Positions 20,534 to 54,389 of a stretch of DNA of 64,000 nt are shown one piece after another. How positions within the stretch are numbered: the stretch's first letter is position 1; each line of letters starts with the position of its first letter. The notes under the pieces are model-generated. The model searched no databases, had not been told where the DNA came from, and saw only the letters and a program-made list of their open reading frames with translations. Source of the stretch: an uncultured Chromatiaceae bacterium (GTDB lineage Bacteria > Pseudomonadota > Gammaproteobacteria > DRLM01); NCBI GenBank assembly GCA_945787555.1, contig CALZJG010000122.1, positions 5,674-69,673 on the forward strand. The letters run 5' to 3'. Both the position numbers and the translations under genes were made by a program.

Positions 20534-20610
20534 AGCAGGGAGGACACAGAGGAGCAATGCTCGCGTTCAATAGCACTCCAAATAATCTTCTCCGTGTTCT
20601 CGGTGGTTAA
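20534..20610. repeat. intercistronic inverted-repeat element, copy B (ureC|ureE)
   Basis: AAGCAGGGAGGACACAGA ... TCTTCTCCGTGTTCTCGGTGGTTAA; same arms as copy A with a shorter core. Begins 6 nt after the ureC stop. Confidence 0.6.
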
Positions 20611-20616
20611 TCATGT

Positions 20617-22320
20617 TCAAAACAAGAAATACCGCTGCGCCAGTGGCAACTCACTGGCCGGCTCGCATTGCAACAACACGCCGTCGGCGCGCACTTCATA
20701 AGTTTGGGCATCGACTTCCATCCGCGGCTGGTAATGATTATGAATCAAATCGGCCTTGCGTACCGCGCGCGTGCCGCGCACTTCGACCAGACGTTTTTGC
20801 AAACCCAGCGCCTCGCCCACACCGGCCTGCAGGGCGGCTTGCGAAACAAAGGTCACGCTGGTCGCCGTGAGCGCTGCACCATAGGCGCCGAACATATTGC
20901 GATAGTGTACCGGCTGTGGTGTGGGTATCGAGGCATTCGGATCACCCATGGGAGCGGCGGCGATCATGCCACCCTTGATGATCAGACTGGGCTTGGCGCC
21001 AAAGAAGGCCGGCTTCCACAACACGATGTCGGCCAACTTGCCCGCTTCGATCGAGCCTACTTCGTGGGCGATGCCGTGAGTAATGGCGGGATTGATGGTG
21101 TACTTGGCCACATAACGCTTGGCGCGATAATTATCGTGCTGCGCAGTGTCTTCCGCCAATGCGCCGCGTTGCGTTTTCATTTTATGCGCGGTTTGCCAGG
21201 TGCGTGTGATGACCTCACCGACGCGCCCCATGGCCTGTGAATCAGAAGCAATCATACTGAAGGCACCGAGATCGTGGAGAAGGTCCTCGGCGGCAATGGT
21301 CTCGCGACGGATGCGCGATTCGGCGAAGGCCACGTCCTCGGCGATGTTGGGATCGAGATGATGACAGACCATCAACATGTCGAGGTGCTCATCGACCGTG
21401 TTGATGGTGTAAGGCCGCGTGGGATTGGTGGACGAGGGCAGCACATTGGCCTCGCCACAGGCCTTAATAATATCCGGCGCGTGACCGCCGCCGGCGCCCT
21501 CAGTGTGATAAGTGTGAATGGCGCGCCCCTTGAACGCGGCAAGCGTATCTTCGACGAAGCCCGATTCGTTGAGCGTGTCGGTATGGATGGCCACTTGCAC
21601 GTCGTATTGCTCGGCGACGTTCAAGCAATTGTCAATGGCCGCCGGCGTGGTACCCCAATCCTCGTGTAATTTTAAACCCATCGCCCCCGCGACGACTTGC
21701 TCCTCCAACGAGGCGGGCAGACTGGCGTTGCCTTTGCCGAGAAAACCCAGATTCATGGGCAAGCCTTCCGCCGCCTGCAGCATGCGCTGGATATGCCATG
21801 GCCCCGGCGTGCAGGTGGTGGCGTTGGTGCCCGCCGCCGGCCCGGTGCCGCCGCCCAACATGGTGGTGACGCCGCTCATCAGCGCCTCCTCCACTTGTTG
21901 CGGGCAGATGAAATGGATATGCGCGTCGAGACCGCCGGCAGTGGCGATCAAGCCTTCACCGGCGATCACCTCGGTGCCCGCGCCGATGACGATGTTCACA
22001 CCCGGCTGGATATCGGGGTTGCCCGCCTTGCCGATGGCGGCGATGCGCCCATGCTTGATGCCGATGTCGGCTTTAACCACACCCCAGTGATCGAGGATCA
22101 GCGCATTGGTGATCACCGTATCTGCGACCTCTTGTGAGGCGCGCTGACTCTGCCCCATGCCATCGCGGATGACCTTGCCACCACCGAATTTCACCTCTTC
22201 ACCATAAACGGTGTGATCTTGTTCCACCGCGATCCATAAGGCAGTATCGCCGAGCCTAATCCGATCACCCACCGTCGGTCCGTACATTTCCGCATAAGCA
22301 CGCCGCGTGATCTTGCTCAT
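20617..22320 (-). CDS. ureC: urease alpha subunit
   Basis: 567 aa; active-site MVCHHLD, Ni-ligand histidines, HEDWG motif. Confidence 0.95.
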
Positions 22321-27959: not shown

Positions 27960-28036
27960 GCGCCCGTAGCTCAGCTGGATAGAGTGCTGCCCTCCGAAGG
28001 CAGAGGTCGTGGGTTCGAATCCCGCCGGGCGCGCCA
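27960..28036 (+). tRNA. tRNA-Arg (anticodon CCG)
   Basis: GCGCCCGTAGCTCAGCTGGATAGAGTGCTGCCCTCCGAAGGCAGAGGTCGTGGGTTCGAATCCCGCCGGGCGCGCCA; anticodon loop CTGCC-CTCCGAA-GGCAG; near-identical to E. coli tRNA-Arg(CCG). Confidence 0.9.
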
Positions 28037-33391: not shown

Positions 33392-33886
33392 ATGGCCCAG
33401 GATCAAGACAAACTCATACAATTTCTCAATCAAACCTATCTATGCGAATCACTGACGGTCAAGGAAGTCGAGACTCTGTTGGAGTACACCGAAGTGGTGG
33501 AGTTCAGCAAGGGGGATGTCATCGCCGAAATTGGCGAAGTCGGTGAAGCGCTGTTTTTCGTCATCACCGGCGAGGCGGCGTTATATCACGAAGACAGCGG
33601 CCGCGCGGTCGAGATCGGTCGCATGCGGGAAGGCCAATTGATGGGCGAAATGTCGTTTTTCGACCGCCAGCCCCGCTCGCTGCGTATGCGCTCCATGGCT
33701 ACGCCGACACAGCTGCTGCGCCTCTCGCGTCCCATGTACAAACGCCTGCGCGTGGAACAGCCCTACATCGCGGTGAACCTACTCGAGCATGCCATCATCA
33801 GCCTCGACCGCTTGGTGCGCAGCGTCAGTGAAGACGAAGCCGCGCTCTCGCGTTACATTTCCAGCTCCGGCAAGAAAGGGCCTTAA
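33392..33886 (+). CDS. stand-alone cyclic-nucleotide-binding (cNMP/CAP-effector) domain protein
   Basis: 164 aa; beta-roll with GEVGEALFF ... GEMSFFD ... R motifs typical of cNMP-binding domains; no DNA-binding or output domain. Confidence 0.65.
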
Positions 33887-33896
33887 GCCCAACCTC

Positions 33897-34499
33897 ATGA
33901 CTGACCACTACCGCAGCACCCGCTTTCTGACCGGGGCGGTGGCGCCCGCCCATTTTCCACCGGATGAAGGCTGGGAGGTGGCAATTGTCGGCCGTTCCAA
34001 CTCCGGCAAATCCAGCGCCATCAACACCCTAACCGGCATCCGCGCGCTGGCCCGCGTCAGCAAGACGCCAGGCCGCACCCGCGAAATCAACTTCTTTGCC
34101 ATCGACCCGCAGCGCCGCCTGGTGGATTTGCCCGGCTACGGTTATGCAAAGGTGCCCCAGGCCATGAAGGCGCAGTGGCAGACCATGTTGAATCGCTATT
34201 TGAGCGGCCGTGACACCCTGCGCGGCCTGTTGATCGTGATGGACGTGCGTCATCCGCTCACTGACTTCGATCAGCAAATGCTCGCTTGGTGCCGCCACGC
34301 CGAACTGCCCGTGCACATCCTGCTCACCAAGGCCGACAAACTGAGTCGGGGCGCCGCGCACAACATCTTGCATCAAGTCCGCCGCGCCCTGGCGACGGAC
34401 CCCCTCTGCACGGTGCAACTCTTCTCGGCCCTAAAGCGCAGCGGAGTGGAGGAAGTCCAGGGCGTGTTGGATACCTGGCTGGAAATATTAAGTGACTGA
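33897..34499 (+). CDS. engB: ribosome-biogenesis GTPase EngB/YihA
   Basis: Start [10 protein letters not shown]; G1 [10 protein letters not shown]3 DLPGYG, G4 TKADK. The ORF-track start at 33789 is an upstream extension. Confidence 0.88.
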
Positions 34500-34527
34500 T
34501 AATTAAATTGTTTTTATTATAATGGGC

Positions 34528-34571
34528 AAAAAAAAAGCCCCGGTCAGGAAAGAGGGAGGAGGTACCGGGGC
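34528..34571 (-). terminator. Rho-independent terminator (sRNA 3-prime end, downstream of polA)
   Basis: 8-bp GC stem GCCCCGGT/ACCGGGGC followed by nine U on the minus strand. Confidence 0.7.
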
Positions 34572-34667
34572 TAGAATAAACCTGACTTGGGGAAGCCAGG
34601 TTTAGAGGGGTTCCCACTCAGGGAGGGAGAGTGGGAGAGCACGGGCCAGAAACCTAAGAAACCGCAC
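34528..34667 (-). ncRNA. candidate Spot42/ErsA-like small RNA
   Basis: Lies between polA and engB, the conserved spf/ErsA locus. AlgU/sigmaE-type promoter GAACTT-N16-TCTTAT (34702-34675, minus strand). Internal hairpin CCCACUC-UCCCUCCCU-GAGUGGG. Terminator GCCCCGGU-(19 nt CU-rich loop)-ACCGGGGC plus U9. Predicted length ~140 nt; 5-prime end approximate. Confidence 0.5.
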
Positions 34668-34674
34668 TCACCCG

Positions 34675-34702
34675 ATAAGAGTGCCGCGCGATGCAGAAGT
34701 TC
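34675..34702 (-). promoter_or_regulatory. sigmaE/AlgU-type promoter candidate for the sRNA
   Basis: Minus strand GAACTT (34702-34697), 16-nt spacer, TCTTAT (34680-34675); upstream A-tract. Confidence 0.45.
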
Positions 34703-34761
34703 ACGACCCGTCCCAACTTTTTTTGGCGACGAAGAAAAGTTAGCACCCTCAGAGCGTTACG

Positions 34762-37482
34762 TCAGTGCGCCTGATCCCAATTGGCGCCGACCCCCACATC
34801 GACCACCAATGGCACGGCTAGCGAGGCCACCTCCGACATACACCGCTCTATCACAGGCACGGCCGCCTCCACTTCCTCGGCTGCCACTTCGAACACCAGT
34901 TCGTCGTGGACCTGCATGATCATTTTAGCACCGGTCCCGCTGTCCTGAAGCCATTCATCGACACGCAGCATGGCCAATTTCATGATGTCAGCCGCCGTGC
35001 CCTGCATCGGTGCATTGATGGCAGCCCGTTCCGCGTACTGGCGACGTTGCGCCTGGCGCGAGCGAATCTCCGGCAAATACAAGCGCCTACCGAACAGGGT
35101 GGCGACATAACCTTGCTCCCGCGCCTGCTCGCGCATGCGGTCCATGAAGGTCTTGGCGCCGGGATAGCGGGCGAAGTACAAATCCATGTATTCCTGCGCC
35201 GCACCGCGCTCCAGCCCCAGTTGGCGCGCCAGGCCGAAGGCGGACATGCCGTAAATCAGCCCGAAATTAATGGCCTTGGCATGACGGCGTTGTTCCGCCG
35301 TCACGTGCTCGGGCGGCACGGCGAAAATCTCCGCCGCGGTGGCGCGATGTATGTCGGCGCCGCTGGCAAAGGCCTGCAGCAAGCGCTCGTCACCCGATAA
35401 ATGCGCCATGATGCGCAGCTCGATCTGCGAATAATCCGCCGCCACGATACGGCACCCCGGTGGAGCGACGAAGGCCTGGCGGATGCGACGCCCCTGCGGA
35501 CTGCGGATGGGAATATTCTGCAGATTGGGCTCGCTGGAAGAAAGGCGCCCGGTGGCCGCCACCGCCTGATGATAGGAGGTATGCACCCGTCCGCTACGCG
35601 GATTGACCTGCTCCGGCAAGCGGTCGGTATAGGTGGACTTGAGCTTGGCCAAGGCGCGGTAGTCGAGTATCAACTGCGGCAAAGCATGCTCAGCGGCCAA
35701 CTCCTGCAAAGCGCTTTCACTGGTCGAGGGTTGGCCTTTCGGGGTTTTTTGCGTGACCGGCAAGTTGAGCTGGGTATAGAGAATTTCTTGTATTTGCTTG
35801 GGCGAGCTGAGATTGAACGGCCCGTGCGCGGCGGCGTGCGCGCGCGCCTCCAAAGTCGCCATTTCCGCCGTCAGCTCTTGGCTCTGCTGGCGCAGCATCT
35901 CCACGTCCACCAACACGCCGCGGCGCTCGATGCGTGACAGCACCGGCACCAAGGGCATTTCGATCTCTTCGAACAAACGCGTTAAATCGGCCTCGGCATT
36001 GAGCTGCGGCCACAAGACCTGATGCAAGCGCAGGGTCACGTCGGCGTCTTCCGCCGCGTAGGGCGCCGCCTGTGCTAGCGGCACTTGATTGAAGGTGAGC
36101 TGCTTGGCGCCCTTGCCAGCGACATCTTCATAGGTGATGGTGGGGTGACCAAGGTACTTCAGCGCCAGGCTGTCCATGTCATGACGGCTGGCGGTGCTGT
36201 TGAGCACATAGGACTCGAGCATGGTGTCGAAACGAAGACCGCGCAGCGTGATGTCGTAATTGGCCAGCACGTTCATGTCGTATTTGAGGTGGTGACCGAC
36301 CTTGGGCTTAGCCTCGTCTTCGAGCAGCGGACGCAGTGCGGCCAACACCGCCTCACGTGACAACTGGGCGGGCGCGTCGAGATAGTCGTGCGCCACGGGA
36401 ACATACGCCCCCTGACCGGGCGCCACGGCAAAGGACACGCCGACGATTTCCGCCTGCATGTAATCGAGGCTGGTGGTCTCGGTGTCGAAGGCGACCAGCT
36501 CCGCCTCACGCAATCGCGCCAGCCAGGTATCGAAAGCTTCCTGCGTCAGCACGGTCTCGTAACCGGCGCGATCCACAACGGGCGGCTCAGGTAAGGCTTG
36601 ATTGACCGTCTCGGCCTCCCCTGACTCCGACAGCTGCCTCAGCCAGGTCTTGAATTCCAGGCGCTGATAAAGCGCCTTGAGGTGTGCCACATCGGGTGCG
36701 CGGCGCTGCAAGTCGGTGGGACCCACATCCAAAGGGACCGCGCAATGGATGGTGGCGAGACGGCGCGCCAAGGGCAGTTGCTCCAGGTGGGCGCGTAGAT
36801 TCTCACCCACCTTACCGGTGATGGCTTCTGCATGGGCGATGATCTCATCGAGGGTGCCGTAGGCCTGCAGCCATTTCACCGCCGTCTTGGGCCCTACCTT
36901 GGGGATGCCGGGAATGTTGTCGGAACTGTCTCCCACTAAGGCCAGATAGTCGACGATGCGTTCGGGCGGGATGCCGAATTTGTCCACCACGCCCTGGCGA
37001 TCCAACAGCGTCCCGGACATAGTGTTTATGAGTGTCACGCGCTCATCGACCAGTTGCGCCATGTCCTTGTCGCCGGTGGAGATCAACACCGGCATGCCCA
37101 ACGCGGCGGCCTGCCGTGCCAAGGTGCCGATGACATCGTCGGCCTCCACGCCGTCCACGATGAGATGGGGCAGACCGCTGGCGGCCACCGCCTCGTGCAG
37201 CGGCTCGATCTGACTCTGTAGGTCATCGGGCATGGGCGGGCGCTGGGCTTTGTACTGCTCGAACAACTCATCGCGGAACGTCTTGCCCTTGGCGTCGAAC
37301 ACCACCGCCAGGTAATCGGGATCGGTGTCGGCCAGCAACTTGCGCAGCATGTTGAGCACGCCGTACACCGCGCCGGTCGGCTCTCCGCGGGTATTGGTCA
37401 GCGGCGGCAAGGCATAGAAAGCCCGGTAAAGATAGGAAGATCCATCTACCAGCACTAAGGGTTTAGAATAGCTATCGGCCAT
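34762..37482 (-). CDS. polA: DNA polymerase I
   Basis: 5-prime nuclease N-terminus LVLVDGSSYLYRAFYALPPLTNTRGEPTGAVYGVLNM, 3-5 exonuclease and polymerase motifs (RRxAKAINFGLIYG, HDELVFE). Start probably at MADSYSKP (37482) or five codons upstream (37497). Confidence 0.93.
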   Translation of the reverse strand: MADSYSKPLVLVDGSSYLYRAFYALPPLTNTRGEPTGAVYGVLNMLRKLLADTDPDYLAVVFDAKGKTFRDELFEQYKAQRPPMPDDLQSQIEPLHEAVAASGLPHLIVDGVEADDVIGTLARQAAALGMPVLISTGDKDMAQLVDERVTLINTMSGTLLDRQGVVDKFGIPPERIVDYLALVGDSSDNIPGIPKVGPKTAVKWLQAYGTLDEIIAHAEAITGKVGENLRAHLEQLPLARRLATIHCAVPLDVGPTDLQRRAPDVAHLKALYQRLEFKTWLRQLSESGEAETVNQALPEPPVVDRAGYETVLTQEAFDTWLARLREAELVAFDTETTSLDYMQAEIVGVSFAVAPGQGAYVPVAHDYLDAPAQLSREAVLAALRPLLEDEAKPKVGHHLKYDMNVLANYDITLRGLRFDTMLESYVLNSTASRHDMDSLALKYLGHPTITYEDVAGKGAKQLTFNQVPLAQAAPYAAEDADVTLRLHQVLWPQLNAEADLTRLFEEIEMPLVPVLSRIERRGVLVDVEMLRQQSQELTAEMATLEARAHAAAHGPFNLSSPKQIQEILYTQLNLPVTQKTPKGQPSTSESALQELAAEHALPQLILDYRALAKLKSTYTDRLPEQVNPRSGRVHTSYHQAVAATGRLSSSEPNLQNIPIRSPQGRRIRQAFVAPPGCRIVAADYSQIELRIMAHLSGDERLLQAFASGADIHRATAAEIFAVPPEHVTAEQRRHAKAINFGLIYGMSAFGLARQLGLERGAAQEYMDLYFARYPGAKTFMDRMREQAREQGYVATLFGRRLYLPEIRSRQAQRRQYAERAAINAPMQGTAADIMKLAMLRVDEWLQDSGTGAKMIMQVHDELVFEVAAEEVEAAVPVIERCMSEVASLAVPLVVDVGVGANWDQAH

Positions 37483-37579
37483 CGCAGGGCAGCGCATCCA
37501 GGCGTAACGAGCCCCGGATTGTACTAAAAATCACCACTCCCCATGCCGCTATGATTACTACACGGAGCACTCAAAGGTT

Positions 37580-54293: not shown

Positions 54294-54389
54294 GCTCCCA
54301 CCCAAGAAAAACCGGGCGGGTCTGACGACACCGCCCGGTTTGATTGATCGCGCGATGGGCGGGCGTAGCCCGCCCATCGATTACCGCAC

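Follow-up and report, generated by a model that had tools for sequence, protein, structure and literature searches.

We analyzed a window of 64,000 nt (64 kb; contig CALZJG010000122.1 of an uncultured Chromatiaceae bacterium) and focused on the intergenic gap between the convergent genes polA and engB, which, judged by conservation among related loci, is the site of a genuine conserved small RNA (sRNA) gene. The interpretation that we favor, with moderate confidence, is that this is a free-standing gene for a trans-acting regulatory RNA of ~144 nt, which is homologous to anti-hemB/ncS04, is driven by a sigma-E-type promoter, and uses C-rich loops to block ribosome-binding sites. By its sequence, the RNA is a divergent, sub-threshold gammaproteobacterial homolog of the Burkholderia anti-hemB/ncS04 RNA and is not kin of Spot 42 or ErsA, as had been proposed in an initial annotation of this stretch. 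The functional guess made in that annotation was largely right, and its family assignment is wrong.

Transcript and structure of the predicted RNA

The predicted sRNA occupies 34528..34671 on the minus strand, and its 5′ end was placed from the onset of conservation (GUGAGU) and the distance to the −10 element. The minimum-free-energy fold contains four hairpins. The 5′ hairpin, stem-loop 0 (SL0; 34637..34669), has an 8-bp stem (GAGUGCGG/CCGUGCUC) and a U-rich apical region of 17 nt; it was kept in the three closest relatives (loci L043, L045, and L049), and the 5′ hairpin is shorter in other family members. SL1 (34612..34636), the signature hairpin of the family, has an 8-bp stem (UCCCACUC/GAGUGGGA) and the loop UCCCUCCCU (34620-34628). 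A single-stranded linker of 7 nt, ACCCCUC (34605..34611), which is conserved in the closest relatives, leads to SL2 (34577..34604), where a 12-bp stem closes a CCCC loop (34589-34592) in the context CUUCCCCAAG. The terminator hairpin SL3 (34536..34572) consists of a 9-bp GC-rich stem, AGCCCCGGU/ACCGGGGCU (34572-34564 paired with 34544-34536), and a CU-rich loop of 19 nt, ACCUCCUCCCUCUUUCCUG (34545..34563), which includes CCUCCUCCC and was kept in L043, L045, and L049. The transcript ends with a run of nine U (34528..34536), the first of which pairs with A34572. A simple terminator scan missed this terminator because its loop exceeds the 8-nt limit of the scan. Folding of the 148-nt RNA gave −57.6 kcal/mol, a stability that was reached by 0 of 200 shuffled sequences (z = −5.8). 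Of the loops, three are conserved and rich in C (UCCCUCCCU, CCCC, and the 19-nt loop with CCUCCUCCC), and two of these contain CCUCC, the core of an anti-Shine-Dalgarno sequence.

Much of this architecture had been recognized in the initial annotation. The motif GAACTT-N16-TCTTAT that it reported on the minus strand was located at 34702-34697 and 34680-34675, and its strong terminator with U9 corresponds to the 9-bp GC-rich stem and the U run at 34536-34528. Both loops that it described, UCCCUCCCU (34628-34620) and the 19-nt CU-rich stretch (34563-34545), were found where expected, but the hairpins number four rather than two, SL0 and SL2 having been missed. Its description of the loops as anti-Shine-Dalgarno-type agrees with the presence of the CCUCC core. 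The proposal of an independently transcribed sRNA gene is borne out, at the level of sequence, by a conserved promoter, a covarying structure, and a terminator, and the sigma-E/AlgU-type promoter withstood comparison as well: the −35 and −10 elements are conserved, the spacer is not, and the motif stands before nearly every homolog.

Conservation and covariation

A scan based on EngB, with one genome per species, gave 41 loci, in which the best EngB match was only ~60% identical. Many of these loci carried GGAACTT-N16/17-TCnnA just past engB on the opposite strand, followed by hairpins with the loops CCUCCCU and UCCCCA and by a C-rich terminator loop, with stem sequences that varied by locus. 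When the window sequence served as the only input to a covariance model (R1), the model gave 24 matches from 17 sources. Each of them lay on the strand opposite engB, and the window had no further match. Four contigs found via the protein database had the exact gene order of the window (thiamine pyrophosphate enzyme, dsbA, cyclic nucleotide monophosphate (cNMP)-binding protein, engB, gap, and polA); R1 scored 71 to 91 bits on them, and their EngB proteins were only ~60% identical. In the alignment with L043, L045, and L049, identity to the window was 100% in the −35 element (TGAACTT), 80 to 100% in the −10 element, 31 to 44% in the spacer, and 74 to 79% in the RNA from GUGAGU to the U run, compared with 37 to 44% between the polA stop and the −35 element and 16 to 36% past the U run. 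We placed the transcript at ~34671-34528 because of this conservation footprint.

A family covariance model (R2) recovered 29 copies in 23 sources, including 18 of the 41 engB loci, with tandem copies in four loci. Alignments of the homologs made with MAFFT were out of structural register, and the model-based alignments (A4, A6, and A7) were used for the pair counts. Standard pairs filled 92.7% of the cells in the family alignment, compared with 67.4% in column shuffles (0 of 500 reached the observed value), and 30 to 54% of the cells were paired when the partner was slid. Among 28 distinct sequences, compensatory changes on both sides were found in 23 of the 26 pairs: in seven of eight pairs in SL1, in all nine pairs of SL2 that the family model retains, and in seven of nine pairs in SL3, where the other two were invariant. 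Homologs that were folded singly gave the same structural plan. The most conserved letters of the family lie in the loops, namely, ..CUCCCU followed by G in SL1 and UUCCCCAA in SL2, the latter being kept in the gammaproteobacterial members. The SL1 loop is also the best-conserved sequence in the Rfam anti-hemB family.

These data bear on the idea that the interval is a small-protein gene or a functionless cluster of GC-rich hairpins that arose by chance, which we consider barely credible. Two mechanical open reading frames (ORFs) of at least 60 amino acids do overlap the sRNA interval, one of 97 amino acids (34324..34617, minus strand) and one of 110 amino acids (34587..34919, plus strand), so that the statement in the initial annotation that no ORF of this size is annotated here holds for the public annotation and not for the mechanical ORFs. 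Neither of the two has a Pfam match, however, and they continue into engB or polA in antisense orientation. A G-rich ribosome-binding site is absent from the RNA, whose first GUG leads to a stop after five codons. The substitutions in the stems are compensatory, and a chance origin is ruled out by conservation over more than 140 loci.

Tandem sRNA arrays were observed in several genomes. Both Panacagrimonas genomes have three copies (L038:4716-5239 and L039:4648-5189), and two other metagenome-assembled genomes (MAGs) have two (L036:4940-5237 and L020:3276-3623). In Panacagrimonas and L036, each tandem copy has a separate GGAACTT-type promoter, an arrangement that recalls the sibling sRNAs of other bacteria. 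Weak extra R1 matches lie between the sRNA and engB at L001:4601-4702 and L004:4615-4725 (17.6 and 19 bits); they were not recovered by R2 and may represent a second, unrelated hairpin RNA or a terminator. A possible second copy in the window, at 54302-54375 on the minus strand, scored 20.9 bits with R2 when the filters were off and was rejected; the site comprises two consecutive GC-rich terminator hairpins, without C-rich loops, after an ORF of 111 amino acids. A repeat element was also rejected, as the RNA is present as a single copy at one syntenic site.

Relationship to the anti-hemB/ncS04 family

No Rfam family matched the polA–engB gap at the curated thresholds. In a permissive Rfam scan, the best family was anti-hemB/ncS04 (RF02837), with a full-length match of 44.9 bits (E ~1e-9, local search) that falls short of the gathering cut-off of 49.5 bits but is far from what chance would give. 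The other families scored lower, namely, alpha-r14 (31.2 bits; cut-off 58.8), ncS54 (28.4 bits; cut-off 43), and the betaproteobacterial toxic sRNA (20.8 bits; cut-off 50). Of 12 homologous loci, 11 likewise had anti-hemB as their top Rfam family, with 30 to 49 bits, and the nearest relatives scored 48.7, 42.3, and 35.9 bits against it. The Panacagrimonas copies matched both R1 (28-42 bits) and anti-hemB (50-63 bits, over the Rfam cut-off), and the homology is thus supported by a chain of sequences running via Panacagrimonas, not by the cut-off. In the alignment to the anti-hemB model, SL1 (UCCCACUC-UCCCUCCCU-GAGUGGGA; 34636-34612) fell on positions CCCGCuUCuCCUCCCUGaGCGGG, and the loop feature ..C(C)UCCCUG with a GC-rich closing stem, which characterizes anti-hemB, is present in SL1 of the window.

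Like the window RNA, anti-hemB/ncS04 has a 5′ hairpin, an SL1 with the loop ..CCUCCCUG, a second hairpin, and a terminator, in that order, and is convergent with the 3′ end of engB. Most copies outside Burkholderia also have the GGAACTT-N16/17-TCTTA promoter of the window, whereas Burkholderia proper has a sigma-70-like promoter. Several features set the window RNA apart. The loop of its SL2 is C-rich (CUUCCCCAAG), in contrast to the AU-rich GCCUUAAU..AUUAAGGC hairpin of most metagenome copies retrieved with the anti-hemB loop motif; its terminator loop, at 19 nt, is larger and rich in C and U, and its 5′ hairpin is enlarged as well. On the far side lies polA instead of the hemB of anti-hemB, but hemB adjacency is neither constant in the family nor required for homology.

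The family name goes with a reading in which the RNA controls heme synthesis by acting on hemB in antisense or in cis. We consider such a role very unlikely for the window RNA. In Burkholderia, as in many betaproteobacteria, hemB is preceded by the RNA on the opposite strand (PMC1950547; bioRxiv 10.64898/2026.09.01.748597), and a 2026 preprint repeats the hemB reading (bioRxiv 10.64898/2026.09.01.748597). However, Weinberg et al. (PMC1950547) chose the anti-hemB strand for its intrinsic terminator hairpin and regarded the transcript as a non-coding RNA and not as the leader of hemB; the window RNA shares this terminator feature in its 9-bp GC-rich stem and U9. In B. cenocepacia, ncS04 is the name given to anti-hemB by Sass et al. 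2017 (PMC5688073 supplement), and it is flanked by hemB (BCAL0264) on the opposite strand and by EngB (BCAL0265), also on the opposite strand, so that ncS04 is convergent with engB (PMC5688073 supplement). In the window, the neighbors are polA and engB, and hemB is absent from beside the sRNA.

A metagenome scan with the anti-hemB SL1 consensus alone, CCCGCNTCNCCTCCCTGNGCGGG, gave 120 loci. Among the 107 of these with enough flanking DNA, engB was convergent and adjacent in 94, and polA stood beside none of the 120 copies. Among the gammaproteobacterial loci, polA was adjacent in 16, and the sRNA accompanied engB without polA in seven. From these linkage counts, engB emerges as the constant neighbor, not hemB, and hemB and polA as interchangeable.

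Such rigid linkage to the 3′ end of engB across beta- and gammaproteobacteria (94/107) could instead indicate a mainly cis role, in which the element serves as a terminator that is bidirectional or shared, pairs as an antisense RNA with the 3′ end of engB, or is processed from the 3′ untranslated region (UTR) of polA. The last engB codons are overlapped by the sRNA terminator at several loci, by up to ~23 nt (L043:2198-2220 and several of L050-L169), and because the window shows no strong polA terminator ahead of the sRNA, read-through is possible. We nevertheless consider a mainly cis role improbable. The sRNA has its own conserved promoter, and conservation is highest in the apical loops and this promoter, not in the segment facing engB. 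The tail that follows the hairpin on the engB strand, UAGAAUAAACC, is a poor one for a terminator, and in the window 28 nt separate the engB stop from the sRNA end. A polA 3′ UTR, which the initial annotation had named as the alternative to its own proposal, cannot explain a family in which most copies are without an adjacent polA, as at all 120 metagenome copies and seven gammaproteobacterial ones.

With the recognition of the free-standing anti-hemB/ncS04 homolog, an RNA family that has been known since 2007, and for which no function was reported in the literature searched, gains a gammaproteobacterial branch. Standard Rfam annotation misses this branch, which comprises 22 source loci, most of them below the cut-off. 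Relative to the literature covered by a limited search, the identification of engB rather than hemB as the constant neighbor is new, as is the textbook sigma-E promoter on most copies. For the window itself, the result is a solid annotation of a previously unannotated gene.

Promoter

The sRNA is preceded on the minus strand by a −35 element of the sigma-E/AlgU type, GAACTT (34697..34702; TGAACTT including the preceding base), and, 16 nt after it, by the −10 element TCTTA (34676..34680; TCTTAT at 34680-34675). The motif GAACTT-N15-17-TCNNA occurs nowhere else on either strand of the window; with an expected count of 0.54, the count alone is not significant, but the position is. TGAACTT is invariant in L043, L045, and L049, where the spacer, as given above, is only 31 to 44% identical and the −10 element is conserved at 80 to 100%. 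When both strands of 735 kb of loci were scanned, the same motif occurred 15 times in its strict form, and 13 of these sites lay directly upstream of an sRNA copy. Among 110 distinct upstream regions of metagenome copies, 91 contained GGAACTT (with at most one mismatch)-N16/17-TC, compared with 1% of control segments. In the resulting consensus, GGAACTT and TCTTA are separated by 16 nt (61 cases) or 17 nt (30 cases), and the −35 element peaks 51 nt before SL1. The −35 consensus of the family is identical to that of E. coli sigma-E, GGAACTT (PMC1540707), and the motif also matches the published AlgU consensus, GAACTT-N16/17-TCtgA (PMC10651043). A promoter scan, which did not search for CRP sites, found no sigma-70-like site upstream of the sRNA on the minus strand. 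The conserved sigma-E-type promoter suggests that the family as a whole responds to envelope stress, and induction of the window sRNA by such stress would follow from the promoter.

Comparison with Spot 42, ErsA, sX13, and cuckoo RNAs

The position of the gene resembles that of two known sRNAs. In Enterobacterales and Vibrionales, Spot 42 (spf) is encoded downstream of polA and convergent with engB/yihA; the initial annotation had noted this shared slot, and the E. coli MG1655 annotation confirmed the same place and orientation. Spot 42 is transcribed from a sigma-70 promoter. Unlike the window RNA, it has U-rich single-stranded seeds and encodes SpfP; it is repressed by cAMP-CRP, as indicated in the reference list of PMC3771888. 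ErsA lies in the same polA–engB intergenic region (PMC8575079), depends on sigma-22/AlgU, and has three stem-loops. It represses its targets by covering ribosome-binding sites via a CCU-containing stretch.

The window RNA could accordingly be a direct ErsA or Spot 42 ortholog with an ErsA-like single-stranded seed, a reading consistent with the arrangement shared with E. coli polA-spf-yihA and ersA, with the sigma-E/AlgU-type promoter, as in sigma-22-dependent ErsA, and with the targeting of ribosome-binding sites by ErsA through its CCU-containing stretch. The best R2 match in the E. coli MG1655 polA–yihA region also fell exactly on spf (L170:616-709, plus strand) in the right orientation, at 18.9 bits. 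Orthology is nevertheless unlikely in our estimation. The score of 18.9 bits is too weak for homology and is attainable by the architecture of a terminator-bearing sRNA alone. The initial annotation had pointed to an Rfam scan as a check of its Spot 42/ErsA assignment; in that scan, neither of the two families was supported, and anti-hemB came up instead at 44.9 bits. Spot_42 (RF00021) gave no match in the window region at E ≤ 10 in two scans, and Pseudomon-1/ErsA (RF01719) reached 13.3 bits (E 2.7-6), compared with a cut-off of 50; for ErsA, the sequence comparison consisted of the Rfam model only. Neither family was found at E ≤ 1 in the 12 homologous loci or at the gathering score in 38 loci. 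The seeds differ as well. ErsA has its seed in an unstructured, U-rich domain that separates SL1 from SL2 (PMC8575079), and the equivalent in the window is the 7-nt linker ACCCCUC. The U-rich stretch of the window RNA lies in the loop of the 5′ hairpin, and its candidate seeds are, unlike that of ErsA, hairpin loops; the ErsA-type seed suggested by the initial annotation is not supported. Descent of ErsA, Spot 42, and the window RNA from a common locus is possible. New relative to the literature searched is that, in Gammaproteobacteria, the anti-hemB/ncS04-type RNA fills the Spot 42/ErsA slot.

By analogy, sX13 of Xanthomonadaceae is the closest functional model for the window RNA. Both are located downstream of polA and consist of a short 5′ hairpin and three stem-loops with C-rich apical loops; the sX13 loop consensus is UCCCCAaG, and its SL2 loop, UCCCCAAG, is nearly identical to that of the window. 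By the criteria of PMC3771888, the window RNA shows the features of sX13, namely, three stable stem-loops with C-rich loops and a position downstream of polA. With experimental support, the sX13 loops repress mRNAs that have G-rich motifs at ribosome-binding sites, near start codons, and the RNA accumulates under stress (salt, 37 °C) (PMC3771888). The sX13 model (RF02232; cut-off 50 bits) gave 17.3 bits on the window, full-length, and 29.5 and 27.4 bits on L022 and L020, respectively. In contrast to the window RNA, sX13 is not beside engB.

Tandem hairpins with CCUCC-type loops, stems that vary freely, and fixed loops are also shared with the cuckoo/alpha-r14 RNAs of Alphaproteobacteria (RF02344) and the betaproteobacterial “toxic” double-hairpin sRNAs (RF02278, ncS27). 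The cuckoo motif CCUCCUCCC is present exactly in the terminator loop of the window RNA. In cuckoo, however, each of two to four adjacent hairpin loops has CCUCCUCCC, whereas the window RNA has it only in the terminator loop, with UCCCUCCCU in SL1 and CCCC in SL2, and the cuckoo and toxic families are multi-copy and dispersed, whereas the window RNA is single-copy at a fixed locus. Membership in cuckoo/alpha-r14 was rejected (31.2 compared with 58.8 bits; one of three loops with the full motif).

We tentatively raise a broader possibility, which we think less probable than not, namely, that the sRNA slot beside engB is a single ancient beta-/gammaproteobacterial locus, whose ancestor was a sigma-E-driven RNA with C-rich loops and whose diverged descendants are anti-hemB/ncS04, sX13, ErsA, and perhaps Spot 42. 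The anti-hemB/ncS04 branch would have kept engB and the sX13 branch polA; in ErsA, the sigma-E promoter would have been retained and the seed moved, and Spot 42 might have been rewired to CRP at its promoter. Such a history would provide a possible evolutionary link among four separately named sRNAs. If it were true, “anti-hemB” would be misnamed, and the RNA would be widespread and part of the envelope-stress regulon, much as MicA/RybB/MicL are in enterics.

Proposed function and candidate targets

Under the favored interpretation of a trans-acting anti-hemB/ncS04 homolog, a sigma factor of the RpoE/AlgU type would transcribe the sRNA under envelope stress. The C-rich apical loops (UCCCUCCCU, CCCC, and CCUCCUCCC) may then pair with the G-rich ribosome-binding regions of mRNAs and block translation initiation. 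This mechanism was inferred by analogy with sX13, the CU-rich Burkholderia sRNAs, and ErsA; the CU-rich loops of Burkholderia sRNAs have been predicted to cover ribosome-binding sites (PMC5688073). Hfq might assist, as suggested by the long U tail (U9) and by the reported binding of Hfq by ncS04 (PMC5688073). The family thereby offers a testable hypothesis of an envelope-stress riboregulator that acts via anti-Shine-Dalgarno loops.

Several observations weigh against this interpretation in one or another of its parts. In addition to the anti-hemB score below the gathering cut-off, the alignments used to count covariation were fitted to the model, which favors pairing, and the source is an uncultured MAG. 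A purely trans-acting role does not explain the rigid linkage to the 3′ end of engB. In the 64-kb window, which is a small part of the genome, no perfect match of at least 9 nt to a C-rich loop was found at a start codon. Three perfect matches of at least 9 nt were found in the window, one each to the U-rich loop of the 5′ hairpin, the linker, and the SL2 region, and none was at a start codon; for a sample of this size, the result carries little weight. The Hfq independence of sX13 bears on the step of Hfq assistance. As for the promoter, ncS04 of Burkholderia did not respond to any stress tested (PMC5688073), and Burkholderia-type copies on metagenome contigs (L053, L081, L095, L132, and L157) are without the sigma-E motif; upstream they share TTCGAGACAATGGTATATCATA instead, a sequence resembling a sigma-70 promoter of the extended −10 kind. 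It follows that not every family member is under sigma-E control. The absence of the motif from the Burkholderia-type copies fits the stress unresponsiveness of ncS04, and the pattern suggests that the promoter was replaced within the anti-hemB family.

The CCUCCCU loop core has a single perfect complement in the window, an AGGGAGG at 20537. It lies in 20537-20610 on the plus strand and is followed by GAGGAG-N4-ATG, which opens a 17-codon ORF (MLAFNSTPNNLLRVLGG) that could be a leader peptide or a chance occurrence.

Genomic context and other features of the window

The gap between polA and engB is 262 bp, and the public annotation of the source contig calls no gene in it. The upstream gene polA (34762-37497, minus), encoding DNA polymerase I (Pfam DNA_pol_A and exonuclease domains), is on the same strand as the sRNA, its end lying 60 nt upstream of the −35 element. 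The gene engB/yihA (33897-34499, plus) encodes a ribosome-biogenesis GTPase (Pfam MMR_HSR1) and converges with the sRNA, its stop at 34499 lying 28 nt from the sRNA end at 34528 on the opposite strand. The mechanical ORF for engB has 236 amino acids, and the annotated start gives 200 amino acids; the 200-amino-acid annotated product P0001 is identical.

Directly upstream of engB is a gene with a cNMP-binding domain (33392-33886, plus). In the clade of the window, this gene stands in place of the cytochrome c genes that are found at the Thiohalomonas locus (L048) and in Burkholderia. Elsewhere in the window, Rfam identified two tRNA genes (27960-28033, plus, and 2224-2295, minus) and a match to 5_ureB_sRNA (RF02514) at 21885-22171 on the plus strand with 94.8 bits, well over the cut-off. 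The latter is antisense within a minus-strand ORF of 567 amino acids (20617..22320) and probably reflects conservation of a urease gene rather than an sRNA.

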